A DNA stretch of 64,000 bases from Escherichia coli (GTDB lineage Bacteria > Pseudomonadota > Gammaproteobacteria > Enterobacterales > Enterobacteriaceae), in the NCBI RefSeq assembly GCF_009931435.1, contig NZ_CP043414.1; one strand, given 5' to 3'. Each line of letters starts with the position of its first letter. The first letter of the stretch is position 1. The translations under genes were made by a program, and so were the position numbers. Under the pieces are notes generated by a model. It was not told where the DNA came from and did not search any database. It saw only the letters and a list, made by a program, of their open reading frames with translations. Of this stretch, positions 22,385 to 43,802 are shown in pieces.

Positions 22385-23857
22385 ATGGTACCTGTGGTCG
22401 CGCTTGTCGGGCGCCCTAACGTAGGAAAATCCACGTTATTTAACCGTCTAACTCGCACCCGAGATGCGCTGGTTGCGGATTTCCCGGGTCTGACTCGTGA
22501 CCGTAAGTACGGTCGTGCGGAAATTGAAGGCCGCGAGTTTATCTGTATTGATACCGGCGGGATTGACGGAACAGAAGACGGTGTAGAAACCCGCATGGCG
22601 GAACAGTCGCTGCTGGCGATTGAAGAAGCGGACGTCGTACTGTTTATGGTGGATGCGCGCGCGGGCCTGATGCCTGCGGATGAAGCGATTGCTAAACATC
22701 TGCGCTCCCGCGAAAAACCGACCTTCCTGGTGGCAAACAAAACCGATGGTCTGGATCCGGATCAGGCCGTTGTTGATTTCTATTCGCTCGGTTTAGGTGA
22801 AATCTATCCTATCGCCGCGTCTCACGGTCGTGGCGTATTAAGTCTGCTGGAGCACGTGCTGTTGCCGTGGATGGAAGATATCGCACCACAAGAAGAAGTG
22901 GATGAAGACGCTGAATACTGGGCGCAATTTGAAGCAGAAGAAAACGGCGAAGAAGAAGAGGAAGATGACTTTGACCCGCAAAGTCTGCCAATCAAACTGG
23001 CGATAGTGGGTCGTCCTAACGTCGGTAAGTCGACACTCACTAACCGTATCCTTGGCGAAGAACGCGTCGTGGTTTACGACATGCCGGGCACTACGCGTGA
23101 CAGTATCTACATTCCAATGGAACGCGATGGGCGTGAGTATGTACTCATTGACACTGCGGGCGTACGTAAACGCGGCAAAATCACCGATGCGGTAGAGAAA
23201 TTCTCCGTAATCAAAACATTGCAGGCGATTGAAGATGCCAACGTGGTGATGTTGGTGATTGATGCTCGCGAGGGTATTTCCGATCAGGATCTCTCCTTAC
23301 TGGGCTTTATTCTCAATAGTGGGCGCTCACTTGTGATTGTAGTGAACAAGTGGGACGGCCTGAGCCAGGAAGTGAAAGAGCAAGTAAAAGAGACGCTGGA
23401 CTTCCGTCTGGGCTTTATCGACTTCGCCCGTGTGCATTTTATCTCTGCATTACACGGCAGCGGCGTTGGTAACCTGTTTGAGTCAGTACGTGAAGCGTAT
23501 GACAGCTCCACCCGTCGCGTGGGTACGTCAATGCTGACGCGTATCATGACCATGGCGGTTGAAGATCACCAGCCGCCGCTGGTTCGCGGGCGTCGTGTGA
23601 AGCTGAAATATGCCCACGCCGGGGGTTATAACCCGCCAATTGTGGTGATTCATGGCAACCAGGTGAAAGACCTGCCTGATTCCTATAAGCGTTATCTGAT
23701 GAACTACTTCCGCAAGTCTCTGGACGTGATGGGTACGCCGATTCGTATTCAGTTCAAAGAAGGGGAAAACCCATATGCGAACAAGCGTAACACCCTGACG
23801 CCGACCCAGATGCGCAAGCGTAAGCGTTTGATGAAGCATATTAAGAAAAGTAAGTAA
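22385..23857 (+). CDS. der: Ribosome-assembly GTPase Der (EngA), tandem GTPase domains
   Basis: ORF 22346-23857; ATG at 22385 gives [20 protein letters not shown]... (490 aa); two G-domains each with GRPNVGKST; acidic linker EEEEEDD. Confidence 0.95.
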
Positions 23858-23919
23858 TCACTTATCTGGTTTCCCTTTCCAAACGGAGAGGGAAACTGAA
23901 CAACAGGCGAGGAGTATTT

Positions 23920-24135
23920 ATGGAACTCAACTGCCCAACCTGCCATAACCCTCTCGAACGCAACGGTGAAACTGCCCACTGTGCAACTTGTGCCAAAGAT
24001 TTCACCATTCAGGCGCTTTGTCCTGACTGCCATCAGCCATTACAGGTGTTAAAAGCTTGTGGTGCAGTAGATTATTTCTGCCAGCATGGGCACGGTTTAA
24101 TATCCAAAAAGCGCGTTGAATTTATTGTTGCTTAA
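23920..24135 (+). CDS. yfgJ: Small zinc-ribbon protein YfgJ
   Basis: 71-aa ORF with paired CxxC motifs (CPTCH...CATC, CPDCH...); conserved position after der. Confidence 0.8.
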   Translation: MELNCPTCHNPLERNGETAHCATCAKDFTIQALCPDCHQPLQVLKACGAVDYFCQHGHGLISKKRVEFIVA

Positions 24136-24326
24136 TATTATTTAAATATATGGTGTAATCATTTGTATTCATAATATAAATGATTGCATCCTATTTTATT
24201 TGTTGAAACGCAAATGTAAGTGAGCGAAATCACTGTGTTATAAATTTAAGATTATATTTAGTTTTCCTGGCGTGCCTTTCTGAATAATCTGGAATAGAAT
24301 ATTAGAGCTAATTTTAAGCATTATTA
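24136..24326. promoter_or_regulatory. AT-rich leader/promoter region of the sinH-like island (left island boundary)
   Basis: About 190 nt of strongly AT-rich sequence (ttaatattatttaaatatatggtg...) directly upstream of the first island gene; contrasts with GC-rich flanking core genes. Confidence 0.4.
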
Positions 24327-26519
24327 ATGTCACAGGGGATGTGCATGCTGCGATGGAAACGCTGTATTATGCTAACATTTATCTCTGGAGCTGCTTTTGC
24401 GGCTCCAGAGATAAATGTTGAGCATAAAGAATCGTTACCTGATTTAGGTAGTCAGGCCGCACAACAGGAAGAGCAAACTAACAAGGGTAAATCGCTAAAA
24501 GAGCGTGGTGCCGATTACGTCATTAACTCTGCCACGCAAGGGTTTGAAAACCTCACACCCGAGGCGCTGGAGTCCCAGGCCAGAAGCTATCTGCAAAGTC
24601 AAATTACCTCTACGACACAATCTTATATTGAGGATACACTCTCCCCCTACGGTAAGGTCCGAACGAATCTTTCTCTTGGTCAGGGCGGCGATCTGGATGG
24701 CAGTTCCATCGACTATTTTGTTCCCTGGTATGATAATCAAACTACTGTTTATTTCAGCCAATTTTCTGCACAACGAAAAGAAGATCGTACGATCGGGAAT
24801 ATTGGGCTTGGTGTAAGACATAATTTTGATAGATGGTTATTGGGTGGAAATATATTTTATGATTATGATTTTACCCGTGGGCATCGCCGTTTAGGTTTAG
24901 GTGCCGAAGCCTGGACTGATTATTTAAAATTCTCTGGCAACTATTATCATCCGCTTTCTGACTGGAAAGACTCCGAAGATTTCGATTTTTATGAGGAGCG
25001 TCCTGCGCGCGGTTGGGATATTCGCGCCGAAGCCTGGCTACCTGCTTACCCGCAGCTTGGCGGTAAAATCGTTTTCGAACAGTATTACGGTGATGAAGTC
25101 GCGCTTTTTGGCACCGATAATCTGGAGAAAGATCCCTTCGCCGTCACGCTGGGTGTGAAATACCAGCCCGTACCGCTCATTGCCGTAGGAACGGATTTCA
25201 AAGCCGGCACTGGCGATAATACCGATCTTTCTGTTAACGCAACGCTGAACTACCAGTTTGGCGTCTCGCTCAAAGACCAGCTTGATCCTGACAAAGTAAG
25301 CGCGGCTCACTCGCTCATGGGCAGCCGTCACGACTTTGTTGAACGTAACAACTTTATTGTTCTGGAATACAAAGAGAAAGATCCCCTCGATGTCACTTTG
25401 TGGCTGAAAGCTGATGCGACGAATGAACATCCCGAGTGCGTGATTAAAGATACGCCAGAAGCAGCCATCGGGCTGGAAAAATGTAAGTGGACCATTAACG
25501 CGCTCATTAATCATCATTACAAAATCGTTGCTGCCTCCTGGCAGGCGAAAAACAATGCTGCACGTACGCTGGTGATGCCGGTTATCAAAGAAAATACGCT
25601 TACCGAAGGGAACAACAATCACTGGAATCTGGTGCTGCCTGCCTGGCAGTACAGCTCTGATAAAGCCGACCAGGAAAAACTCAATACCTGGCGGGTACGC
25701 CTGGCGCTGGAAGATGAAAAAGGCAATCGGCAGAACTCCGGCGTGGTGGAAATTACCGTTCAGCAGGACCGTAAAATTGAGCTCATTGTTAACAACATCG
25801 CCAATGTACCGGATGAGAACAATCACAGCCACGAAGCCAGCGCGCAAGCGGATGGTGTAGATGGTGTCGTCATGGATCTCGACGTTACCGATAGCTTTGG
25901 CGACAACACTGACCGTAACGGTAATGTCTTGCCGCAGGATAATCTCAGCCCGCAGCTGTTTGATGCCAACGATAAAAAAGTGACGCTGACGAATAAACCC
26001 TGCACCACCGAAGTGCCGTGCGTTTTTATCGTCAAACAAGATAAAGAAAAGGGGACCGTTACGCTCTCCAGTACGTTGCCCGGCACTTTCCGCTGGAAGG
26101 CGAAAGCCGCCCCTTATGATGACAGTAACTATGTTGACGTAACGTTCCTGGGTTCTGACATCGGCGGGCTGAATGCTTTTATCTACCGCGTTGGTGCAGC
26201 TAAGCCCGTCAATCTTATCGGCAACAAAGAACCGTTGCCTCTCAATAGCCGCTATCGCTTTGTGCTGTGGCGCGACGCTAACAAAGACGGCGTGTTCCAG
26301 CTTTCTGAGAAGCTCACTGACGATGAGATGAAACAGTATGACTATCAGTGGGAATTCACGGGGCATAGCGTAAATGGCAATACCGGTGCGCAAACCAATA
26401 CCACGAACGTCGATATAGAGATCCCGGCAACCAACAAGGAAGCGGCAGCAAAGTTTAGTGCCCAGGTAACCGATGGCGTGCAGGGATACGGTTTGCAGGT
26501 CAATTACAGCAAGAAATAG
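24327..26519 (+). CDS. sinH: Intimin/invasin-family outer-membrane protein (inverse autotransporter), SinH-like
   Basis: 730-aa ORF; signal-like N-terminus (alternative start at 24345, MLRWKRCIMLTFISGAAFA); central inverse-autotransporter-type beta-barrel region; located between yfgJ and xseA as in the Salmonella CS54-type island (from memory). Confidence 0.7.
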   Translation: MSQGMCMLRWKRCIMLTFISGAAFAAPEINVEHKESLPDLGSQAAQQEEQTNKGKSLKERGADYVINSATQGFENLTPEALESQARSYLQSQITSTTQSYIEDTLSPYGKVRTNLSLGQGGDLDGSSIDYFVPWYDNQTTVYFSQFSAQRKEDRTIGNIGLGVRHNFDRWLLGGNIFYDYDFTRGHRRLGLGAEAWTDYLKFSGNYYHPLSDWKDSEDFDFYEERPARGWDIRAEAWLPAYPQLGGKIVFEQYYGDEVALFGTDNLEKDPFAVTLGVKYQPVPLIAVGTDFKAGTGDNTDLSVNATLNYQFGVSLKDQLDPDKVSAAHSLMGSRHDFVERNNFIVLEYKEKDPLDVTLWLKADATNEHPECVIKDTPEAAIGLEKCKWTINALINHHYKIVAASWQAKNNAARTLVMPVIKENTLTEGNNNHWNLVLPAWQYSSDKADQEKLNTWRVRLALEDEKGNRQNSGVVEITVQQDRKIELIVNNIANVPDENNHSHEASAQADGVDGVVMDLDVTDSFGDNTDRNGNVLPQDNLSPQLFDANDKKVTLTNKPCTTEVPCVFIVKQDKEKGTVTLSSTLPGTFRWKAKAAPYDDSNYVDVTFLGSDIGGLNAFIYRVGAAKPVNLIGNKEPLPLNSRYRFVLWRDANKDGVFQLSEKLTDDEMKQYDYQWEFTGHSVNGNTGAQTNTTNVDIEIPATNKEAAAKFSAQVTDGVQGYGLQVNYSKK

Positions 26520-26574
26520 GGTCGGCGCCATGGCTGATCGGGCCACCGCTGAATATTAATCAAGGAGAGTGTTT

Positions 26575-27567
26575 ATGAAACCTGATATGAAACGTGGCCT
26601 GACAAAAGTCGCGCTCGCGTTGATGCTGGCTGGATACTGTGCCGTACCAGCCGCTATGGCGGAAGATGCCGCCTGGGTCGCCAGTGGAGCGACCGCTGAA
26701 TTCGAAGGGACTATACCCTGGCTCTATCGCGAAGGGGGGAATGCCACGATTAACTCGGAAGATGCGGATCACATTAAAGTGACGTCTGATGGTAAAGGGA
26801 CCCGCCCTGCAGGTAGCGAGACGGATAAACGCCTTTACTCAGGGGATACCATCACGCTGGGATGGGATATCGGCGATACCGAAGGGGATGTTGATGATGG
26901 TCCCGCAGGCATTGATGCGAAAACGACGGCCACTATCAAATGGTACAGCTACAGCAATAATGCGGGTGGCGATAAAACGGAGCTGACCGCAGCGGCAGGC
27001 AAGACGAGTTATAAACTCACTGATGACGATCGTGGGCGTTATATCGGTGTTGAAATCCAGCCCATCACCCAGACCGGTAATCCCTTCGAGGGAACGTCGC
27101 TGACTCTGCTGGATATTTCAACGGCCAGCGGTGGCGGCAGCGATACGGACAATGTCGATCCCGGCCCGGTTGTGAACCAGAATCTGAAAGTTGCCATCTT
27201 CGAGAAAGGCACCACTACCAACCTTATCGGTGGTAACACGGCCATTGCGCTTAATAAAACGTATGTGGCCAAACTGTACTCGGATGAAAACCAGAACGAT
27301 AAATACGACGCAGGTACGGATATGGACGTTACCGCTAACTATGACTTTGCATGGGTCTTTAACGGTAACAGTAAACAACTTGCTGCGGCGGGCGGTATTG
27401 CTAATGCCAGCTTCGATAACAATGACATTGTTATCCCGCAAACTAACGAAGAAGCAAGAACCAGCCTTAATGGTAGTGACCGTAATGGTAAGAGTGGTCT
27501 TGCGATCCCGGCAAACGGCGACGGCGTTCAGGGCTATACGCTGTCTATCATTTACAAACACCACTAA
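26575..27567 (+). CDS. sinI: Secreted SinI-like protein, homologous to the SinH C-terminal module
   Basis: ORF 26569-27567; ATG at 26575 preceded by aaggag RBS; signal peptide MKPDMKRGLTKVALALMLAGYCAVPAAMA; C-terminal DGVQGYTLSIIYKHH parallels SinH C-terminal DGVQGYGLQVNYSKK. Confidence 0.65.
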   Translation: MKPDMKRGLTKVALALMLAGYCAVPAAMAEDAAWVASGATAEFEGTIPWLYREGGNATINSEDADHIKVTSDGKGTRPAGSETDKRLYSGDTITLGWDIGDTEGDVDDGPAGIDAKTTATIKWYSYSNNAGGDKTELTAAAGKTSYKLTDDDRGRYIGVEIQPITQTGNPFEGTSLTLLDISTASGGGSDTDNVDPGPVVNQNLKVAIFEKGTTTNLIGGNTAIALNKTYVAKLYSDENQNDKYDAGTDMDVTANYDFAWVFNGNSKQLAAAGGIANASFDNNDIVIPQTNEEARTSLNGSDRNGKSGLAIPANGDGVQGYTLSIIYKHH

Positions 27568-27576
27568 TGCGCACAA

Positions 27577-27606
27577 CAGCATTCCCATATGGGAATGCTG
27601 TTTTCC
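27577..27606 (+). terminator. Hairpin plus T-tract after sinI (cagcattcccatatgggaatgctg then ttttcc)
   Basis: Perfect palindrome 10 nt after sinI stop, followed by a T-run; a second long palindrome follows at 27608-27642. Confidence 0.5.
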
Positions 27607-27676
27607 GCCTGTTTTGCTTAGCGACGCGTTAAGCAAAACAGGTTGATGTTTTGTTTATCATGCTGGAGTTTTCTAC

Positions 27677-30600
27677 ATGTCGGTATGTCTGAAACCAGGG
27701 AAAATCATTATGCTTCTGGGCATGTTGGCAGCTTTTATGCTGTCTGACTTTGCACGGGCAGGGGCGGAATGGCAGACATATCCTGATTCTACAGGCGAGT
27801 TTAACGGAACCGTTCCTTTTGCCGACAGCGCCAGCGTACCCGTCTATCAGGGCAGTGTTCAGCTTAATCCTGCTGAATCTCATGATGTCGGGTTTTCTGC
27901 TAAACCGAATGAATTTAGTGTTGACGATGACGCTGCTAACCTGATTGTTGCTAATCCTCAGGACAATGAAGGCGACCAGTTTTCCACACCACCTGCGCTG
28001 CGCTGGGAAAATCAAACACCCCCTACCGTCAGCCTGGTGTGGGCCGATGCCGCCACGCCCGATGTGCCCCTTAACCCACAACCCATTGCTAACCGTAGCT
28101 TTTGCGCTCAGGGGCTCGCCGGACGCTCGCTGGTGGCCTGGCCGCAGATTGATGCGCAGCAAACCCTCCCACTGCTCTACCTGCTGACCTCGACCGGGTA
28201 TCCCTATGCGGGGACGGTGGCGCTGGTGGACCAGAAAGTGACCCTGAACATCGCGCCCGCGCAGGGCGATTTAATCTCGGTGAGCGCCAGCGGTTATAAC
28301 GAAACGATCGCGGCGGCAAAAACCACCGTTGGCGACACCATCACGCTCACCGTCACCACTAAAGATTGTCAGGGCAACGTCGCGGGTAATATTCCGTTTA
28401 TTATCAAACGTAAAGATGCTGAAAATCGCCAGGGGGCAGTGAATAATAGTGCGCCAGTGGTACTGGATAGCACCGAGTTAACGACGACGGCTACCGAATA
28501 CCATGGCACCTCTGATTCCAACGGCACGGCCACCATCACGGTGAGCCAACCGAACGGCCCTGGTGTCAAAACGCCACTGGTGGTCAGCATTTCCGGCATT
28601 GCGCAAACCAGCGAAACCGCAGTGATTTTTACCGTACTCACCAGCCCGGACGTGGCGCAGGCTACGATGTGGGGCCATATGGCGGAGACGGTAGAAGCCC
28701 ACGGTTACACCTTCAGTCGACCAAAGCTGGCGGCAGAAGTCAGCAATGAAAGCGCCACGGTTGTCGATCATAACGAAACCTGGTCCACCTTCACCTGGAG
28801 CGGCGCAGATAGCCACTGCACCGTGCTGCCCGGCATGCGCCACTTCGGCGCGCTGGCGACCGTTATCCCCACGTCGGTGCAGACAGCCCTTGGCTGGCCG
28901 ATGCAGGGGGATTATTACTGGTCATCGCTGGCGGGCACCACCGGGCAGCACCATGCGGCGGATGTCTCTAACCGTAGTGAAACGCAAAAGCCGGATAGCA
29001 CCCCGTTTCTTGTGAGCTGCGTGGATAAACCCGCGCCTGATGTCGAACCGAAAATCGTCCTTACGCCCGAAAACTATGATGATACGGCACAGGCGATGAA
29101 ATCGCAGGTGGGCGAAGACGCCACGATGCGTCTGACGATCACCGACAATAAAAATAACGATCAACCACTGGCGTATTACTACTTCTCGCTGCATCTGGAT
29201 GACGGCGTTAACCGCAAAAATCAAACCGATTCCGCCTGGGAAGCCCATCCGGTGCAGATTACTGGTGGTTCGAATTTACAACAGGTTGATGCTCACACCT
29301 ATGAAGGCATGACCGATGTCAACGGTCAGGCTTCGCTAACCCTGAGTCAGCCCGACGGCGCAGGCGTGAAAACCCATATCACGGCGAAAATGCGCAGCAA
29401 TTTTACGGCTACAGATGCCAAAGACGTGATTTTTACTGTGATCACCAGCCCGGACAGCGACAAGGCGCGGATGTGGGGCCATATGCGCGGCATTGTTGTA
29501 TCTGGCAGTCTGTTCAAACGCCCAGTGCTGGCGGATGAAACTGAGCATGAACTGGGATCGGTGCGGGAAAATGACGAAGACTGGGCGCTGTTCGATCAAG
29601 ACACCAGTATGCAGGCTGAATGCGGCGTCGGCCATACGCCACGTCAGAGTGGGCTGGAAAGCCTGTTTTCAGCCCATCCCGGTAACGCGATTGGCACTGA
29701 GTATGGCTGGCCCACCGCCCAACAGAGCTACTTAAGCGCGGTGGAGCAAGCCACGCATTCATCGGTGAATCTGGGGAACGGAAACGTCGACAGCTACTCC
29801 GGCTTTAAGCAGAATTACCTCTCCTGTTCGGGCAATGAGATGGTAGCGAAGGTTGAAGTCAGCACCGATCACGATATCACCCCTGGCAGCAAAGCGCAGG
29901 CCAAAGTAGGTGACACCATCGTGATGACCGTGCGTACGATTAACGCGCTCAATAATACCCCGGTACCCTTTACTGCATTCACCATTACCAAAGGCATGGG
30001 GTATAACCGAGCGGGGCTGGTGAGCGGGTTTGATGACCCGAGCAGCGGCGCAATCTCGATGAATGGCACGCAATACGGCACATCACAGCCGTCGATGGTC
30101 TACACAGGTACGACAGATGCACAAGGCGTGGCAACGGTCGAAATAGAGCAACCCCAGGGGGTGGGGTTAAGAACCGTGCTGAGCATTACGCCGGTCAATT
30201 CCCATCTACCAAATGCCATTAATTACAATGTTATTTTTACCACCCCAACCAGCCCGGATGTTAGTGGGGCGCAGATGTGGGGCCATATGGATGAAACGAT
30301 TACCGTTGATTCATTAACCTTTACCCGGCCTAAGCTGGCAGCAGAAATCGCCAGTCCGGATGGCACACTAACGGAAAAAAACGAAGTCTGGGCGCGCGTT
30401 AGCCAGGCCAGTACGGCCATTACCAGTAAAGGCGGTTGCGGAACCAATATGCTGCCGCGCCGCTCCCAGCTCAGTGCGCTTTATGACGCTAATAACGGTA
30501 ATGCGGTGCAAGCCACACACGGCTGGCCGACGCAGCGTCAGCCCTACTGGAGCAGTTCCCCCGCGGATTTAACGCCGCACAATTACACCATTGCCCTGGA

Positions 30601-33600
30601 TAACGGCGCACAGGCCATCGGCGGCGATACGCCGGTTTACGTCAGTTGCCTGACGACGGCGAACAAACCTGCCAGCAGCATTACGCTGGATGTGGTTGAT
30701 AACGCACAGTGGGCTGCCGGAAATAACGCGGCGAAGCTGAAAAAAGGCGAAACGCTACGGGTTAAGGTAACGGTAAAAGATGCGCAGGGTAATCCGCTCA
30801 CGGATATGCCATTTAAACTGAGTCGCGGAGACGGTTATACCCGCACGGGCGAAAAACATATTGCCGGTAGTGGCGATGCGCTGGTGGCACCGGTGGTGAT
30901 TAACAGTGGGCTGGCGGATGAAACGACGTTGAACGACACCGCGGGATTTTATACTGCCATGACCGGTAGCGACGGCAGCAAAATCCTCAATATTACCCGC
31001 CCGGATACTCACGGCACCAAAACGGCGCTGACGGCGACGTTGTATTCCGATCCAACAAAAAAAGACAGCCTGGATACAATCTTTACTGTGGTCACCAGCC
31101 CGGATAGTAGCAAAGCGAAAATGTGGGGGCATATGCCGGAAACGGTGACGGCTGCGGACGGTACGGTATTTAAACGCCCGCTGTTGTTGAAGGAACTGGC
31201 CTATCAGACTGGGCGAACATCGACGTCTGAAGACAATGAAAACTGGGCGTTGTTTAACATTAATTATGCGAGTTCTTCCACGACGTATAGTGGCTGTGGA
31301 ACCAACTATATTCCGACTCAAGCCGGTCTGACGTCACTGTTTGCTAATAATGCGGGCAACACCATGAAAACCGTGCAGGGCTGGCCGGTGGCAACACGCT
31401 ATTTGTCCAACACGTCCGACAACGGCAGCATGGAGCAGCGTAACTACAAGGCGGTAGATCTCAGCAATGGCACGAGTGCGGCAGTGTCATCAACGGCGCT
31501 GCAACTGCTGACCTGCCAGACCACGCCGGTAACCACGGTGGGCCAAATTCTGCTGGAAGCGGCAGATCCGGCGACGCTGGATACCACCTATAACGTGGTA
31601 AAAGCGAAAAAAGGCGAAGAATCCGTGGTGCGCGTCACCACCAAAGATACGCAAGGCAACCTGGTGGGCAATACGGCATTTATCCTGACGCGTGCCAACA
31701 GCGTGAGTCGGGCTAACGCATCAGCAACCGCGAGCGTGGGCGCGCTGACGGTGACGGATGCTTGGGGAAATACGCGAAATAATTTCCAGTCGACGAGTGA
31801 AACGATTTACGGCGTGACTGGTGCAGACGGGTCAACGACATTTACCCTGAAACAGGATAACAGTACCGGGTTAAGAACCGATCTCACGGCAAAACTGGAT
31901 ACGTCCAGCAGCGTCAAGGCGACGCTACCGGTGGTCTTTACTGTCGTGACCAGCCCGGATTCGCCAAAAGCGAATTTTTGGGGACATATGGCCGAAACGG
32001 TGATGGCCTCCGACGGTACAATCTATAAACGACCACTGTTGTTGAAAGAGCTGAGTAACACCAGTGGTCGAAATTCTACGGCTGAAAACGGTGAAGATTG
32101 GGCAAGATTCACCTGGACTCAGTCGGCTGACACCAGCATGAATGGGTGTGGTACAGATTATATGCCGACGCTGGATGGACTGAAGTCTTTGTATGACGCC
32201 AATAGCGGTAATGTGATGAGTACGGTGCAGGGATGGCCGGTAAAAACGACCTATCTCACCAATACCCCGAGTGATACGCAAACAGGGAGCCGTTACTACA
32301 ATGTGGTGCAACTGAATACTGGTGCAGTCTCACAAATCTCGACGAACACAGTCGTGCAACAAACCTGCCGCACAACGCCGTTGACGGCTGCTAGCCAGAT
32401 TACGCTGGAGGCCTCAGACCCCTCGCAATTTGTCAGCATTGACAGTACGCTTAGCGCGATCAAAGTGCAGAAAGGCGATAGCGTGTCGATCCGCATTTCG
32501 ACTAAAGATGCACAGGGGAATTTAGTCGGCAATACGCCGTTTGCCCTGAAACACGCTAACCCGGTCAATCGCCAAAATGTGGCGTCAACATCGCAGAAAG
32601 TGTCGGTCACGACTGCGTCGGGTACGACGGTGGATACCACTGCATCGACCATTCTGTATGGCGTGACCGGGCCAGACGGAACCACCACGATGACACTCCG
32701 ACAGGATGTGTCTACTGGACTCAAAACCGACTTTTATGCTCTGTTGAACGATACCGGCGTGTCGTCGAACACCTTGCCAGTGATCTTCACCGTCGTCACC
32801 AGCCCGGATACACCGCTGGCGGCCAACTGGGGGCATATGGCGGAAACCTTTACCAGCAGCAAGGGCGTCACCTTCAAACGGCCTTTCCTCAAAGCTGAAC
32901 TTTCTGGTGGTACGGCGGTAACGACCAATAATGAAGTCTGGTCGCGCCTGACAGCAACGGAGAAAACGGATGCCAGCAAGGCTGGGTGTGATGAGAGTTA
33001 TCAACCGCTGATGACTGACATGCAGGGGTTGTATGCGGATTACCCTAACAACCAGTTGGGCACGGTGCTCGGCTTGCCGACTTCCGCCGGGTATATGTGG
33101 GCCTACGACATGATGACGGTTTCTGGCAGCAGCTGGAGCAACCAGGCATATTCGCTCGTTAATGGTCAGACAGTTCAGGCATCGTCCAGTTATACGGCGG
33201 TAGTGATGTGCCTGGTGGAACCGCATACCGTTCCGGCGATGATAGAGATCACTTCAACAGCACAGGATGCGGCAAAAACGGTCAGCAATGGTGGTCGACC
33301 GAGCGCCGTAGCGAAGAAAGGTGAGACGATTCCGCTGACGGTGACCGTACGTGATAGCACCGGGAATCCGGTACCCTACGCCGACTTTACCCTCACGCGT
33401 GGAACGACGCTGGATCGCTCGAAAGCAACCGTTAACTCGAGTGCGGACGATCTTACCGTGAAGTCATTGATACCCGCGAACAGCGACGCTGGGCTGACGG
33501 CAAATGGGGCAAAAGTGCTCAGAACAACGGGCAGTGATGGCACAGCCACCTTTGAAGTGAGCCAGAATGCCACGACAGGTCTGGCGACACCGATAACCGT

Positions 33601-35761
33601 CACGCTGGCGCGCGATACAACCAAAACCGCCACGCTGGATGTTATCTACACGGTGATAACCAGCCCGGACTCACCGAGCGCGAAATTCTGGGGATACATG
33701 CCGGACACCTTTACCAGTTCGGCAGGCGTCACCTTCAGACGACCGCTCCTGAAAGCCGAAGCGACTTCAGGGTCATCGATTAGCACTAACGGCAATGGTG
33801 AAGTGTGGTCGTATATGAGCAACGTTCAAAATTTAACATCGACAGATTGTCCGCTGGAGAATCAACCGCGCAGTAATGAATTGTTGGATTTGTATAATGA
33901 TCATCCCAACGGCGCGATAATGACTGACCTGGGGCTGCCGATATATGCAGGCAAGTGGTGGGCTTATGATATGGTCATGCCGGATTTATATACGTGGCAG
34001 TATCAGACTGTCAGCCTGAGCGCAGGAGATATCGCGAAGAGCTCGGCAAACAACGCGCTGATGCTTTGCCTGGCGAAGCCGCATCCGGCAGGCGTCAGCG
34101 TAATGTTGACGTCATCCGCAATGGATAACGCCAGAACCCTCAGTAATGGCGGGCGACCCAGCGCGTCAGTGAAAAAAGGTAACCCACTGCCAATTGTGGT
34201 GACGGTCAAAGATCGTGATGGCAACCCGCTGGCGGGAGAGGCCGTTACGCTCAGGCGTGGTTCAGCGATGAGCCGTTCAGGAGCAGGAGTGGGCACGCCG
34301 GCAAATGCAATGACGTTGACAGAGTTGACACCTGTGTCGGCGGAGTTTTCTCTGGCCGCACACGATACGCAATGGCAAGGTTTCACCGGCAGTGATGGTA
34401 CGGCCACTTTCAATGTTGAACAGCCTGAGACCATCGGCCTGGCCATTCCGTTCACCGCTATACTGGCGCGAGATGTCGCAACTACCAGCGTCCTTGATAC
34501 GATCTTTACCGTCGTCACCAGCCCGGATTCCGCAATGGCGACCTACTGGGGCCATATGCCGGATACGGTAACGGCGGAAAACGGCGTGGTCTTTGAACGG
34601 CCTAAATTGTTGAAAGAGCTGCCGTCGAGCGCCGGAGTCAGTCAGGTGACGGATAACAATGAAGTGTGGCCGTTGTTTAAGGCAACGCAAAGGGAAGATA
34701 GCAGCCTCAGTCCTTGTGAAGCGGCACGTCGGCCATTGAGCGATGATTTATTATCGCTCTACGCGCGCTATCCGGGGAACACGCTGACGACTCAAATCGG
34801 CTGGTCTACGAAGTATGCATGGTGGGCACTGGATAACAAGCAGGGGAATGCCCTGGTTGTCAGTCTGAATAATGGTTTTGAGTCGTCGACGGCGAGTACG
34901 GGGTATCAGGGATGTCTGGTCAATCCCCGCGCGACCGTCTCCAGCGTCACGCTGACATCGACGGTGATAGATGCCACTACGCAGGCGGCGAAGGTAAAAA
35001 AAGGTGAAGCCGCGCCCGTCGTTGTTACCGTAAAAGACAGCGCCGGGAAGCCGGTACCGAATGTCGCTTTCACCTTAAAACGTGGTGATGCCGTGCCGCG
35101 TAACAGCGGGGCGACGTTGTATGGTGATGTTGCGGCGATGGATGATATGACGGTACAACCTGCCAGCGGGACGGTGGTAACGCTGGCTGACAGTGGGAAT
35201 ACGATCGACGGTGTGACAGGGGCGGACGGTACGGCAAGTTTTGCCGTTCGTCAGGATAATACGCCAGGATATAAAACGCCGTTGACGGTGACGCTGACGG
35301 ATAACGCCACAATAACGGCGACGCTGGATACGATTTTCACCGTGCCGACCAGCCCGAATGTCGCCACGGCGTATTTCTGGGGGCATATGGCGGATACCGC
35401 CACCGTAAGTGGCAAGACGTTACATCGCCCGCTATTGCAATCAGAGTTGCCGTCAGGGGCTACAGCGGCAGTAGCGCCAACGGTGAATAATGAAATCTGG
35501 GCGCTGGCACATGTGATCGATGCTCAAAAATGGGATATTGCAAAGCAGTGCGGTGACTTTAGTAGAGCACCGAGCTATACCGATTTACAGTCGTTACATA
35601 GCAGCTTTAGCGCGCTGGGATGGCCATCATCGATAAGCTTCCCCTATTTCTCTACCGATCGGGCCGGTTCGTTCTATTGTGGCATGGATGAAGGGGCGGG
35701 GACACAAAACTGCGGTATTCAGGCATCCAGTACTGCGGGGTTTGCAACCTGTTTCCAGTAG
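27677..35761 (+). CDS. ratA: Giant RatA/RatB-like repetitive surface or secreted protein (Big_1-type Ig-like domains)
   Basis: 2694-aa uninterrupted ORF; N-terminal signal ([17 protein letters not shown]); nine tandem repeats each with a Big_1-like strand (e.g. [13 protein letters not shown]), a TSPD motif and a WGHM motif; last gene of island, convergent with xseA. Confidence 0.65.
28640..35400 (+). repeat. Nine tandem, divergent coding repeats (period 804-861 nt) inside the ratA-like gene
   Basis: The tgg-ggN-cat/tac-atg (WGHM/WGYM) motif recurs at 28670, 29474, 30278, 31124, 31979, 32828, 33689, 34547, 35378; each is preceded by accagcccgga (TSPD). Confidence 0.85.
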
Positions 35762-35816
35762 TCTTAACGGGTCTGTAAATGGGGGCCAAGATGTAAATAA
35801 GATTCGCAATACGTCA

Positions 35817-37214
<1,398 letters not shown>

Positions 37215-40458: not shown

Positions 40459-40503
40459 GACTGGCTATAAATAGTAAATTAAGCCTTTCCAACTAACTTT
40501 AAT

Positions 40504-40536
40504 GCCAGTCAGTTTGCTGACTGGCATTTTTTATTG
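40504..40536 (+). terminator. guaA rho-independent terminator (gccagtcagtttgctgactggc then attttttatt)
   Basis: Perfect hairpin plus T-tract 45 nt after guaA stop. Confidence 0.7.
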
Positions 40537-40604
40537 GTTTTTCATTGAGTTTATGACTTCTATTTTTAAGGCCGTAACTCTATAACATCGGCTATGGCCT
40601 AAAG

Positions 40605-40632
40605 ATAAAAGCCATTACCAACAAAATGGCGG
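40605..40632 (-). terminator. Probable minus-strand terminator downstream of the membrane receiver-like gene
   Basis: Minus-strand reading gccattttgttggtaatggc followed by ttttatcttt; lies about 120 nt downstream of the ORF ending at 40753. Confidence 0.45.
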
Positions 40633-40752
40633 TATTCCAAAACAGTCTAGCCGGAAGTGCTTACAATGAGATCGATCAAATCGACAAATGAGATACTGGC
40701 CGTTGTGAGCGCCCGGCAACCGTAGCCGTAGGGGGCGAATTTAATGGCTTTG

Positions 40753-41529
40753 TTATGAGCCATTGGTAATCGCACCCATGACAATTTGAAAGAGTTCTTC
40801 TGCTCGATTAGTGGAGCCAATTGCACCTCTTTCTCTCGCCATTCTCTTGTGCTCTGGTAGATCTGAGGACGCATAGATCATAAAAGGAGTTTTGTCTCCC
40901 ATTGCGCGTAATCTTTCTAGTAAGACATAACCTTCTTGCGCCCCTTCTTTGCGATCCATATCCGAAATAATAGCTGCAAACTTATTTGTTTTTAACAATT
41001 CCAAGGCTTCGTCAGTTGAAAGAGCTAAAGCGAACTCTATTCCCTGTGCCTCAAATGCCTGTCTTTCGTAAACATTATTTTCTGGTCGATCATCCACCCA
41101 TAAAATACGATTTCGCCATTTTTCATGCTTACTCTGCCGTTTTGCATTGGATACAACGTTGACGATTTTTTGCAGTTGGCTTTCAGTGACCCCTGCACTA
41201 TTTTCAGGCTGTTTTGCTGTGGCGGCGGTCAATGATGCTGCTGTAGCTATTTGCGCTCTTAAAAAATTATTTTCATCTTTGAAATCTGACGGCCCGTAAA
41301 GCTTATTATGATGTTTCGCAACAAGCCAGAGAAAGCCAAGAAACACAATGACAGGAAAGAAAACCATGAAATAAATAAGGGGAGCTATATGCTCTGATAA
41401 GCCATTACCAAAGCCAACGACGAAAGAGGCAAATCCATAAACGAGAACAATAAAGAGTGCAATGATACCAAGAGGGCTTTTGGTAAATCCTATTGCAGTT
41501 TCAGCAAATTTCTCTGGTTCCATATCCAT
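40753..41529 (-). CDS. Hypothetical membrane protein: two N-terminal TM helices plus a C-terminal CheY-like receiver-like domain (accessory gene, not in K-12 layout)
   Basis: 258-aa ORF; TM segments GIIALFIVLVYGFASFVVGF and IAPLIYFMVFFPVIVFLGFLWLV; C-terminal REC-like pattern ILWVDDRPENN / AAIISDMDR / TPFMIYASSD / GAIGSTNRAEEL with N/R where the conserved REC Lys is expected; AT-rich codon usage. Confidence 0.7.
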   Translation of the reverse strand: MDMEPEKFAETAIGFTKSPLGIIALFIVLVYGFASFVVGFGNGLSEHIAPLIYFMVFFPVIVFLGFLWLVAKHHNKLYGPSDFKDENNFLRAQIATAASLTAATAKQPENSAGVTESQLQKIVNVVSNAKRQSKHEKWRNRILWVDDRPENNVYERQAFEAQGIEFALALSTDEALELLKTNKFAAIISDMDRKEGAQEGYVLLERLRAMGDKTPFMIYASSDLPEHKRMARERGAIGSTNRAEELFQIVMGAITNGS

Positions 41530-41616
41530 CCTCAGTATTGCTCATAACACAGTTAAGTTGTATTAGATCAGACCTGATCTGACAATTACCGGCTATTTAT
41601 AAAGGTATCTGTCAGA

Positions 41617-42012
41617 TTACATCTGGCTTAAGTTTTTCTCATCCCAGATGTGCTTTCCATCAAGTAACGTTTCCATCGGCGTTCGGCCACTGCACATTTT
41701 TCCCTGATGGGTTCGCTCATTATTATAGTGAACCCGCCATTCATCAAGAACCGATTGTAATGCTTCAAGATCATCATATAACTTTTTGCGGAACGTCACC
41801 TGATAAAACTCGTTCAGTATCGTTTTATGGAACTGCTCGCAGATACTATTGGTCTTAGATGACATTGCTTTCGTTTTCGTATGCTCAATATCATTTATCG
41901 CCAGATAAAGCTGGTAATCATGCTGCTCCACTTTACCGCAATCTCTTGGTGTATTGAGAGGCGGGTTATAAAATAAATACTGATACCATGAGGGCGGATC
42001 AATCGTGGTCAT
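41617..42012 (-). pseudogene. Truncated DDE (rve-type) transposase, C-terminal fragment only: IS remnant
   Basis: 131-aa ORF with integrase-core C-terminal signatures NSICEQFHKTILNEF and WRVHYNNERTHQG...GRTP; upstream DD catalytic region and DNA-binding N-terminus are absent. Confidence 0.6.
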
Positions 42013-42027
42013 AGTATCAGGTCATTC

Positions 42028-43542
42028 TCATGGGTTTATTGCGTCCCTGAAGATGACGTCGCTGACCATCTCTCCTCCAAGAAAATCGATCAACATATTC
42101 GAGTTTTCAAGGTCTTCTCTGGTCAATGCCCCGATTGCTTGTCCAACTACTACCTCCCAAGGTTTTTTACACTCAACAATAGCACAGACGAGTTGGCGGA
42201 TTTTCTTGATCTTCTTGTGACGCAATCGGTCGTTCGATTCCATTAGTTCTGCAATCAACGCTATGTCGGAGTGTGTTTGATTATCCTCAACCCATTTTTT
42301 GGCTGCGTCTACAAATTCCACCCATGTAACATTCATTACTGCAAGGCATGAATCAGTCAAAAGAACATTTTCGATAGCGTAGCATCGTAAGCGATAGCGT
42401 TTAAGAGGTAGGCGATGTTCAAGCGACTTGTTGATTACACCATCGCCATCACGAAGGGAAAAGGCGATTGGATTGTCATAGAGTGTACTAAGGAGGTCTA
42501 CGCAAAAATCCTCAAGTTGACTCTGTTGATCTACGCTACCTGCTAGTACGGGAAAGATTTTTATTCGACCCTGTGATGTTCTGGCCGCTTGTTGCCAGAC
42601 TCGTTCGTCGTCCTCTCCTTCCAAAATTAATGCAGCGTCTTCGCTAAGAGAAAGCGATAGGGGGTGCCCGAAGAATGGTGCAATCTTTCGAAGTTCATCG
42701 CTGGCCGGTATCAATGAGATTTCATTTACTGCAAAGCTCTTCGTGCCGATTGATACATATGGGGAGGCGGCAAGAGAACAGACGAGCGGGGAACTATGGG
42801 TGGATAAGCATATGGCAATACTGTTCGCGTGTGTTCTAAATTCGTCGAGCATACTGATTATCAGCTTGCCCAGTCTAGCTTGGAGGTCGGGGTGCAGATG
42901 TACATCAGGCTCATCGAGGAGGAGTACGTTGAATTTCTCCGGATCTATTGTGTCGAAGAAATAGATGATTTCCGCGGCTAATGCAACCGCTTCCGATTCA
43001 CCGCTACTGATTTGGGCCGGATCAATAATCTGACCATCTACAAGTGATCGAAACTCATAATCGACATTACCCATCTCGAGCGAAATGTTAGTGAGAAGCT
43101 GATTAATTTTACTTAATCGGTCTGTCTGAAAGTTTCGCGTTAGATCAGTTCGAATTTCCGGAGTATTGGCAAGTCGACGTAAGTAAAGCGTCTCGGCCTC
43201 GCGAAATAGCATAGCCGATGCAGCTTTGAAGTTGCTTGCCTGATTAACTGCCCGAGTGTGCCTCAGCCATTCGGGGTTGTCGCTCATATTTGTGAGGACG
43301 GTGCCATCACGCTTGAACGATCCTGCTCGCTCTGGACTTACATACCGGACATAAAATTGCTGCTTGTTCTGGCTGATTGTTTGTTCGATATCGCGAAGGA
43401 AACGACTTTTTCCCGCACCGTTTCGGCCCATAATTATGTTGATGTTGTTTAAGCCGTAAAGTCGGCCAATTTGGCTAGATAACTCGCTTACTTTCAAGAT
43501 TGTAACTCCATTTCTTGTTGCCACATACGGTAACAAATACAC
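42028..43542 (-). CDS. OLD-family-like ATPase-nuclease (ABC-type ATPase fused to TOPRIM-like domain); accessory gene
   Basis: 504-aa ORF with GTG start at 43542; Walker A GRNGAGKS (43405-43428), ABC-signature-like ISSGES, Walker B/D-loop VLLLDEPDVHLHP, H-loop STHS; C-terminal TOPRIM-like LILEGEDDE (~42610-42630) and RDGDG (~42440-42454). Confidence 0.75.
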   Translation of the reverse strand: MYLLPYVATRNGVTILKVSELSSQIGRLYGLNNINIIMGRNGAGKSRFLRDIEQTISQNKQQFYVRYVSPERAGSFKRDGTVLTNMSDNPEWLRHTRAVNQASNFKAASAMLFREAETLYLRRLANTPEIRTDLTRNFQTDRLSKINQLLTNISLEMGNVDYEFRSLVDGQIIDPAQISSGESEAVALAAEIIYFFDTIDPEKFNVLLLDEPDVHLHPDLQARLGKLIISMLDEFRTHANSIAICLSTHSSPLVCSLAASPYVSIGTKSFAVNEISLIPASDELRKIAPFFGHPLSLSLSEDAALILEGEDDERVWQQAARTSQGRIKIFPVLAGSVDQQSQLEDFCVDLLSTLYDNPIAFSLRDGDGVINKSLEHRLPLKRYRLRCYAIENVLLTDSCLAVMNVTWVEFVDAAKKWVEDNQTHSDIALIAELMESNDRLRHKKIKKIRQLVCAIVECKKPWEVVVGQAIGALTREDLENSNMLIDFLGGEMVSDVIFRDAINP

Positions 43543-43573
43543 TAACTGAATAGGTGCGTTGATGCCTCATTTT

Positions 43574-43606
43574 GTTCACATCTATGTTGAAATTAGTGAT
43601 GTGAAC
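43574..43606. promoter_or_regulatory. 9-bp perfect inverted repeat (gttcacatc N15 gatgtgaac) upstream of the ATPase gene: candidate operator
   Basis: Read directly: gttcacatc at 43574-43582 and gatgtgaac at 43598-43606, 32-64 nt upstream of the GTG start at 43542. Confidence 0.35.
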
Positions 43607-43802
43607 GAGCTAAGGACTCTATTAGGAGTAGAGCGGCCATATTGTTCGTCTGAACAGCCTGTAGACAGCTCTATTATTGAGACATGGTATTTTTCGTGGT
43701 ATCTGCTAAGTAGTTTGTTTCAAGGCATTGATTTATTTATATTTTATTTTCTCATTGATAGCTGAGTGGGAATGATTTGATCCCTGCACTATGAATTAGC
43801 AA

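Follow-up and report, generated by a model that had tools for sequence, protein, structure and literature searches.

The DNA between yfgJ and sinH, positions 24136-24344 of the Escherichia coli stretch analyzed here (64,000 nucleotides (nt) of contig NZ_CP043414.1, in the following called the window), is probably an ordinary composite intergenic control region of the adhesin operon sinH-sinI-ratA-like (the "ila" locus; a CS54-type island). The sinH promoter within it looks silent by default, in line with published work on this gene from another strain. The original prediction for this DNA had described a strongly AT-rich, curved-DNA-like leader of about 190 nt at an island boundary and, as such leaders of horizontally acquired virulence genes are commonly silenced by H-NS, had inferred a probably conditional expression of the island. 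The E. coli island was named "ila locus" before, with sinH and sinI being co-transcribed (PMC12525524), and the orthologue of sinH in strain SMS-3-5 was named iatB (Goh et al., 2019, mSphere; PMC6714894).

Composition and boundaries of the region were established directly for this locus. A query of 841 nt spanning the feature (23860-24700) was 100% identical to E. coli strain 2020CK-00188, for which the order hisS-yfgM-bamB-der-yfgJ-sinH-sinI-"adhesion domain protein"-xseA-guaB-guaA is annotated, the "adhesion domain protein" after sinI being a RatA-like protein of 2694 amino acids (aa). The last gene common to the window and K-12 was yfgJ, and its stop codon (24133-24135) forms the left edge of the island. 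Similarity to K-12 was lost in the alignment immediately past the yfgJ TAA. As the stop codons of yfgJ and xseA overlap by 4 nt in K-12, all sequence from 24136 on is missing there. The segment lacking in K-12 covers 24136 to about 35816 and begins with the AT-rich stretch. The predicted position at the sinH-side edge of the island was thus correct. Its right end at 24326 had been set on the assumption that sinH starts at ATG 24327, which is the first sinH ATG given by the open reading frame (ORF) tool, while the conserved start and that of the Prokaryotic Genome Annotation Pipeline (PGAP) is ATG 24345; the non-coding stretch therefore comprises 209 nt. Among 5,426 complete E. coli genomes, 1,697 (~31%) carried the segment. 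Most of these were only ~85% identical to the window, and the allele of the window was found at 99% identity or more in 15 genomes. The features of the region and its two neighboring genes are:

23920-24135, plus strand: yfgJ, encoding a double zinc-ribbon protein of 71 aa (Pfam Zn_ribbon_6, E = 4.8e-30; PGAP annotation of the identical strain)
24136-24344, no strand: full yfgJ-sinH intergenic region, 209 nt, 72% A+T; the originally predicted 24136-24326 are its first 191 nt
24152-24190, plus strand: hairpin with an 18-bp AT-rich stem, then CCUAUUUUAUUUG, found by a terminator scan
24165-24183, no strand: weak match to the LeuO palindrome (10/14), GTATTCA-TAATA-TAAATGA, not above chance in the window
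24245-24261, plus strand: box TTTAAGATTATATTTAG, candidate activator-binding site centered about -54 from the predicted transcription start
24272-24277, plus strand: poor -35 element GTGCCT (3/6), read from the sequence, 17 bp upstream of the -10 element
24295-24300, plus strand: -10 element TAGAAT of the predicted sinH promoter; TAnA[A/C]T is found 33-34 bp past the box in 16 of 20 spacers
24334-24347, plus strand: Shine-Dalgarno sequence AGGGGA (24334-24339) and sinH ATG (24345-24347), PGAP start, conserved in orthologues
24367-24427, plus strand: nearly perfect mRNA hairpin of 28 pairs in sinH codons 8-28 (signal peptide), -44.2 kcal/mol, z = -12.4

For comparison, the yfgJ-sinH spacers of 20 further loci were gathered, namely seven from E. 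coli/Escherichia including SMS-3-5, E. albertii, three from Salmonella, four from Citrobacter, three from Pseudocitrobacter and two from Superficieibacter. In 12 of the other loci the orthologous spacers measured 200-236 nt with 21-30% G+C, and a further 7 had lengths of 205-345 nt. Of the three Salmonella spacers two were long (333-345 nt) because a G+C-rich, repetitive extragenic palindromic (REP)-like palindromic insert follows directly after yfgJ in S. enterica and S. salamae (locus L025, 1156-1300, and locus L026). Downstream of this insert the box and the -10 element were retained together with the AT-rich portion. Apart from a few blocks, the spacer sequence diverges almost freely. The conservation of box, -10 element, Shine-Dalgarno sequence and hairpin indicates that the region is under functional constraint. 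As a side observation, a divergent E. coli sinH-like allele (SinH-like protein P0085, 70% identical) follows der with no yfgJ called; its upstream region of 656 nt is different, and the box is missing at the usual position.

The only strongly conserved block in the otherwise divergent spacer was the 17-bp box, with the consensus TTT[A/C][A/G]GA[A/T]TNNATTTAG. It was exact in 18 of the 20 spacers scanned across Escherichia, Salmonella, Citrobacter, Pseudocitrobacter and Superficieibacter; E. whittamii showed a change of one base, and E. coli P0003 and SMS-3-5 carried more degenerate versions. The box occurs once in the 64-kb window (0.09 matches expected) and once in each locus. In Salmonella and Citrobacter it reads as a direct repeat, TTTAGG-N6-TTTAGG. 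Downstream of the box, the -10 hexamer, which is TATAAT in Salmonella and Citrobacter, was located 44-50 nt before the start codon, with the critical A at position 2 and T at position 6 invariant. The fixed distance between box and -10 element points to a specific activator, beyond generic counter-silencing alone. Transcription is predicted to start near 24306-24307, giving a predicted 5' untranslated region (UTR) of ~38 nt, which is unstructured (fold z = 0.29). At the start codon, the upstream motif ACAGGG(A/G)A and the N-terminus MLRW/MVQW were conserved in the orthologues, and ATG 24327 was not. The AT-rich stretch of ~190 nt is therefore for the most part no transcribed leader, and consists mostly of putative terminator and upstream promoter DNA; the predicted transcribed leader is only the short 5' UTR. 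The predicted sinH promoter escaped a consensus promoter scan on account of its weak -35 element, as expected for an activator-dependent promoter. The only consensus match of that scan in 23700-24700 was a promoter-like CTTACA-16-TAAAAT on the minus strand (24220 to 24193), directed antisense into yfgJ.

Comparing the box with known regulator sites, a similarity to an RcsB half-site became visible. The distal half of the box (TAAGAAT/TAGGAAT) matches the RcsAB half "tatTCctA" and the BglJ-RcsB core "wwTTCykA" in 7-8 of 8 positions, and its reverse complement in Salmonella and Citrobacter is TATTCCTA. The RcsAB box was described as TaAGaa/tatTCctA and the BglJ-RcsB core as wwTTCykA, with BglJ-RcsB sites centered 52-79 bp upstream of transcription starts (PMC3950696); the box is centered at about -54. 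Its other half (ATTTAG) differs from the RcsAB box in having no essential TC. An 8-mer resembling an RcsB half-site is expected by chance at a rate of ~0.4 per spacer, and BglJ and GadE are not present in all genera that retain the box. Possibly a heteromer uses one RcsB half-site here.

Further candidates were tried and rejected. For the RcsAB box or RcsB homodimer site (14-bp pseudo-palindrome TaAGaatatTCctA) the left half fits, while the right half, ATTTA, contains no TC, so the box is no canonical RcsAB box. SsrB was dismissed, as the box is kept in genera without Salmonella pathogenicity island 2 and sinH is not mentioned in the corresponding paper (PMC2837388). Among the consensuses of sigma-54, marbox, PhoP, PmrA, CpxR, Lrp, SlyA, GAD-box and YpdB, which were compared by eye, none fits both sequence and spacing of the box. 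A CRP-like aGTGA-N6-TCACt at 24219-24234 reached 8/10 here and in a single further E. coli allele, and was not conserved elsewhere. A sigma-54 site has been reported for sinH of Salmonella; it lies within the gene and has no relation to the leader. A metagenome scan with TTTTTAGGAATNNATTTAG yielded 120 stretches, of which 119 were chance matches in AT-rich contigs (mean G+C 33.5%) and one was a sinH locus; no regulon could therefore be deduced for the box.

The AT-richness of the region was as pronounced as predicted. The G+C content was 25.1% for 24136-24326 and 27.8% for 24136-24344, compared to 51.4% for the whole window, and only 0.28% of the 191-nt windows in the 64 kb were as G+C-poor as 24136-24326. 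The sequence string quoted in the original prediction was found, starting at 24141. With 72% A+T over 209 nt and 75% over 24136-24326, the region is an AT-rich tract of the kind expected over an H-NS-silenced promoter (roughly 65-70% A+T or more). Only two other places in the 64 kb had a G+C content of 32% or less, both of them core-genome intergenic regions flanking yfgG. A search of the spacer for phase-variation signals revealed no GATC and no homopolymer run of 6 or more, and two small ORFs (24 and 31 aa, minus strand) came without supporting evidence.

A curved DNA structure was not confirmed. Curvature was calculated in 120-bp windows using the Bolshoy/Trifonov wedge model; for a phased A6 control the model returned 0.45, i.e., strongly curved, as expected. 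The ratio of end-to-end to contour length was 0.984-0.988 for windows starting at 24100-24200, which corresponds to the 84th-93rd percentile of straightness, and of the shuffles of the region 88% were less straight than the region itself. A/T tracts are short and only four in number, and TpA steps amount to 12.9 per 100 nt compared to 4.5 window-wide. According to the model the DNA here is flexible and TpA-rich, unlike phased A-tract DNA. It is therefore most improbable that the stretch acts through intrinsic curvature as a structural signal, or is a functionless accident of composition. The strong AT-richness would fit such an explanation, and H-NS classically targets curved AT-rich DNA in front of promoters (PMC2094087), yet the straighter-than-average path with few A-tracts and many TpA steps contradicts the former, and the conserved box, -10 element, Shine-Dalgarno sequence and hairpin indicate functional constraint.

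What is known of the expression of sinH was carried over by analogy from the literature on the orthologue, namely that the gene is silent under laboratory conditions, is activated by LeuO and is upregulated in infection. The IatB protein of SMS-3-5 was undetectable in LB or M9 at 28, 37 or 42°C. In a screen of 30,000 transposon mutants with an iatB promoter-lacZ fusion all 12 up-mutants overexpressed leuO, and LeuO overexpression raised iatB mRNA ~15-fold in SMS-3-5 without detectable protein (PMC6714894). LeuO is known as an H-NS antagonist and co-regulator (PMC6698644). Furthermore, sinH was reported to be upregulated in human urinary tract infection (PMC9937491). The predicted conditional expression of the island is partly supported by these data on silence, LeuO induction and infection; the premise of AT-rich foreign DNA, from which it had been derived, is not. 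The comparison with SMS-3-5 is close, since the order der-yfgJ-[209-nt spacer]-sinH-sinI-large adhesin-xseA is the same, box region, -10 element, Shine-Dalgarno sequence and start codon are found in the same places, and the box-to-(-10) segment GCCTTTCTGAATAATC is identical. The two differ in sequence, with a mean column identity of ~80% (five-allele spacer alignment) and a degenerate box, AATAATGATATATTTAT, in SMS-3-5. The SMS-3-5 paper contains no description of promoter anatomy, nor of an H-NS test or a binding site (PMC6714894).

A LeuO core palindrome, ATATTCA-N5-TGAATAT, was derived from K-12 cas and leuO DNA after its description in the literature (PMC6698644). The best match in the window reached 11/14 at 24284-24302, overlapping the -10 element (P = 0.11). 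As this is not above chance, the LeuO effect could be indirect. About 180 nt before the ATG, the palindrome was found at 14/14 in Citrobacter MGH106 and S-77 and at 12/14 in several Escherichia and Pseudocitrobacter. Summed over 20 spacers the LeuO score was 226 versus 194.5 ± 3.4 in shuffles, with the sequences being related and not independent.

For H-NS, a matrix was built from eleven published sites (PMC2094087), and scores above the window's 99.5th percentile were taken as matches. The 209 nt contained 13 matches, compared to 2 expected from the window rate and 7.1 ± 2.6 in composition-matched shuffles. The area 24001-24300 represents the densest cluster in the 64 kb, with weak matches of 5.4-7.1 bits. 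AT- and TpA-rich DNA is the preferred substrate of H-NS, and curved AT-rich promoter-upstream DNA its classical target (PMC2094087). Taking composition, motif density and the behavior of the orthologue together, an H-NS-type silencing of the sinH promoter is plausible, in which H-NS would occupy the region.

We are aware of several observations that weigh against a silenced control region of this type. The excess of H-NS motifs over shuffles is modest (P about 0.03). The best score of 7.1 bits compares to 5.5-11.7 bits for the published sites (8-11.7 for the better ones), and no 10-mer scores like the better half of the eleven, so that a clear high-affinity nucleation site of the tCGATAAATT type is missing. 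The AT-rich tract covers only ~200 bp and is flanked by DNA of normal composition, and the body of the island is not AT-rich. Chromatin immunoprecipitation data for H-NS or hns-mutant data for the sinH locus were not found in the literature searched. Neither the window nor SMS-3-5 has a LeuO match better than 10-11/14, short of a near-perfect palindrome. The transcription start is known by prediction only. Finally, the stem of the hairpin behind yfgJ holds only 3 G-C pairs, which is atypical for a terminator, and several orthologues have no U-run.

Some of these points could also be explained by a simple activator-dependent promoter with no role of H-NS, kept off by its poor -35 element and turned on when a regulator occupies the box. 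The AT-richness would then be no more than is usual for intergenic and terminator DNA of enterobacteria, and LeuO would act indirectly, e.g., via another regulator. Such a promoter would account for the box and its fixed distance of 33-34 bp to the -10 element being the only features conserved across genera, for the weak -35 element, for the lack of a strong H-NS motif, for LeuO-core matches not above chance in the window or SMS-3-5, and for two core-genome intergenic regions of the window being equally AT-rich. We nevertheless consider it rather unlikely. The E. coli inverse autotransporter adhesin FdeC, whose gene fdeC (eaeH) is reportedly regulated by H-NS and temperature, judging by the title of the 2014 study of Easton et al., is of the same protein class as SinH (intimin-like type Ve adhesin) and lab-cryptic; its locus and promoter are different, and the likeness is known by title. 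The transposon screen in SMS-3-5 gave only LeuO-overexpressing insertions and no dedicated regulator (PMC6714894), and TpA-rich DNA of 72% A+T over 200 bp corresponds to the preference of H-NS (PMC2094087).

Other LeuO-activated promoters of E. coli provide a comparison. The promoters of cas (CRISPR Cascade), bgl and leuO share AT-rich regulatory DNA with sinH, as well as silence in the laboratory and activation by LeuO overproduction, the latter two known for the iatB orthologue (PMC6698644, PMC3950696). They differ in their footprinted LeuO sites, which carry the palindrome ATATTCA-N5-TGAATAT, and in their demonstrated H-NS repression, compared to a best match of 10-11/14 and a short AT tract at sinH. 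A further difference is that the genes downstream in the sinH locus are not AT-rich.

The composite control region favored here would function as follows. The hairpin with its U-rich tail would end yfgJ transcription and insulate sinH from read-through. The following 50-90 bp of very AT- and TpA-rich DNA would serve as a platform for H-NS/StpA, keeping the promoter off during ordinary growth, and LeuO would antagonize this silencing. The 17-bp box, ~54 bp upstream of the predicted start, would recruit a specific activator, which would act on a sigma-70 promoter with a good -10 (TAGAAT) and a poor -35 element. Finally, an unstructured 5' UTR of a predicted 38 nt with a strong ribosome-binding site would lead to ATG 24345.

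The hairpin at 24152-24190, present in the sequence of this locus, folds as RNA with -18.5 kcal/mol (z = -6.4; none of 200 shuffles was as stable). In most orthologous spacers a hairpin lies 15-30 nt past the yfgJ stop codon, with the position kept and the sequence different. Most likely it is a putative intrinsic terminator or insulator of yfgJ (der-yfgJ) transcription. Should it instead be an attenuator, sinH would be transcribed from the der-yfgJ promoter or from near the yfgJ stop codon with a true leader, i.e., a 5' UTR of ~200 nt, and control would be mainly post-transcriptional. We regard this as improbable, as a -10 element in which A2 and T6 do not vary is kept at a constant place, 44-50 nt ahead of the start codon, and as the spacer outside of box and -10 element diverges freely, unlike a structured leader, and matches no Rfam family. 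In the Rfam scan of 23000-25500 (E ≤ 1) nothing relevant was found, the sole match being a spurious plant miRNA on the coding-region hairpin. The atypical terminator, with its AT-rich stem and a U-run missing in some orthologues, would be in agreement with a long leader, as would the LeuO-raised mRNA without detectable protein, combined with a strong covarying hairpin just inside the coding region. The same is true for the yfgJ-like gene found beside sinH without der in C. freundii, C. portucalensis and Citrobacter S-77, which suggests a travelling unit.

The second hairpin lies outside of the coordinates of the original prediction, in the signal-peptide codons of sinH, and is probably part of the same control region. 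None of 1,000 synonymous recodings was as stable (mean -21.5, native -44.9). In an ungapped alignment of 18 sequences 73.6% of the hairpin cells were paired, compared to 38-43% when the 3' partner was slid; the covariation score was 0.303 versus 0.08-0.13, and 40 versus 17-25 cells were changed on both sides. In E. albertii a double compensatory change has turned ACAUUU/AAAUGU into ACGCUU/AAGCGU, with two amino acids altered at the same time. The hairpin was full-length in all Escherichia alleles, comprised 10-12 bp in Citrobacter MGH106 and Pseudocitrobacter, and was missing in S. enterica and C. freundii. The sense strand forms numerous G-U pairs, which argues for a structure at the RNA level, and since no U-run follows, the hairpin is not a terminator. 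As a guess, it might be a translation brake or an RNase III substrate, either of which would fit the mRNA-without-protein result of SMS-3-5.

The conserved box and this mRNA hairpin are the only elements of the region that we did not find already described. We tentatively propose, at less than even confidence, that sinH is held silent by these two conserved cis elements together, with the box serving a core enterobacterial regulator, possibly an RcsB heteromer. If true, the 28-bp mRNA hairpin could explain why LeuO induced iatB mRNA without detectable protein. Laboratory crypticity, LeuO inducibility and probable H-NS control are already in the literature, and the original prediction therefore adds little to them. 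The locus differs from a typical AT-rich foreign island, and the feature is an ordinary cryptic-adhesin promoter region that was largely anticipated. Added here is a base-level map of terminator, box, -10 element, true start codon and mRNA hairpin, which provides precise sites to mutate. SinH is a leading vaccine antigen in development versus extraintestinal pathogenic E. coli and contributes to bladder colonization, and whether it is expressed, and at what time, decides on its usefulness as a target.

The body of the island (24136-35816) had a G+C content of 52.9% compared to 51.4% for the window, which is not that of low-G+C foreign DNA. The der-yfgJ-sinH-sinI-rat arrangement was common to Escherichia species, Salmonella, Pseudocitrobacter and Superficieibacter. 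With this composition, and the same arrangement in several genera, the predicted "horizontally acquired, AT-rich" character of the island did not hold. Compared to K-12, identity was 97-100% left of about 22740 (bamB, start of der), 88-93% across der, 43-68% in the der-yfgJ spacer and the 5' half of yfgJ, and 82-93% across xseA. The core flanks der (22741-23857) and xseA (35817-37184) are thus divergent, being only 82-93% identical, and the island-bearing haplotype therefore extends into both genes. This suggests an allele exchange of the whole region by homologous recombination.

The yfgJ gene itself is a mosaic relative to K-12 (23858-24040). The N-terminal zinc ribbon (~31 aa) was ~35% identical and the C-terminal 40 aa were identical in 38 of 40 positions, corresponding to 43-68% versus 87% identity at the DNA level. 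In Citrobacter portucalensis, C. freundii and Citrobacter sp. S-77 a yfgJ-like double zinc-ribbon gene is located directly upstream of sinH, and it is preceded by a gene for an MFS transporter or a GFO/IDH oxidoreductase instead of der. This small gene thus seems to move together with the sinH-sinI-rat module. Further downstream, a low-G+C insert (41-46%) was found between guaA and yfgI at about 40500-43800, which is missing in 2020CK-00188. Its ORFs are all on the minus strand (40753-41529, 41617-42012 and 42028-43542), and it encodes an AAA_15/AAA_21 ATPase (504 aa), an integrase-core fragment (rve_3) and a receiver-domain protein. To judge from these domains, the insert may be a small mobile or defence-type cassette.

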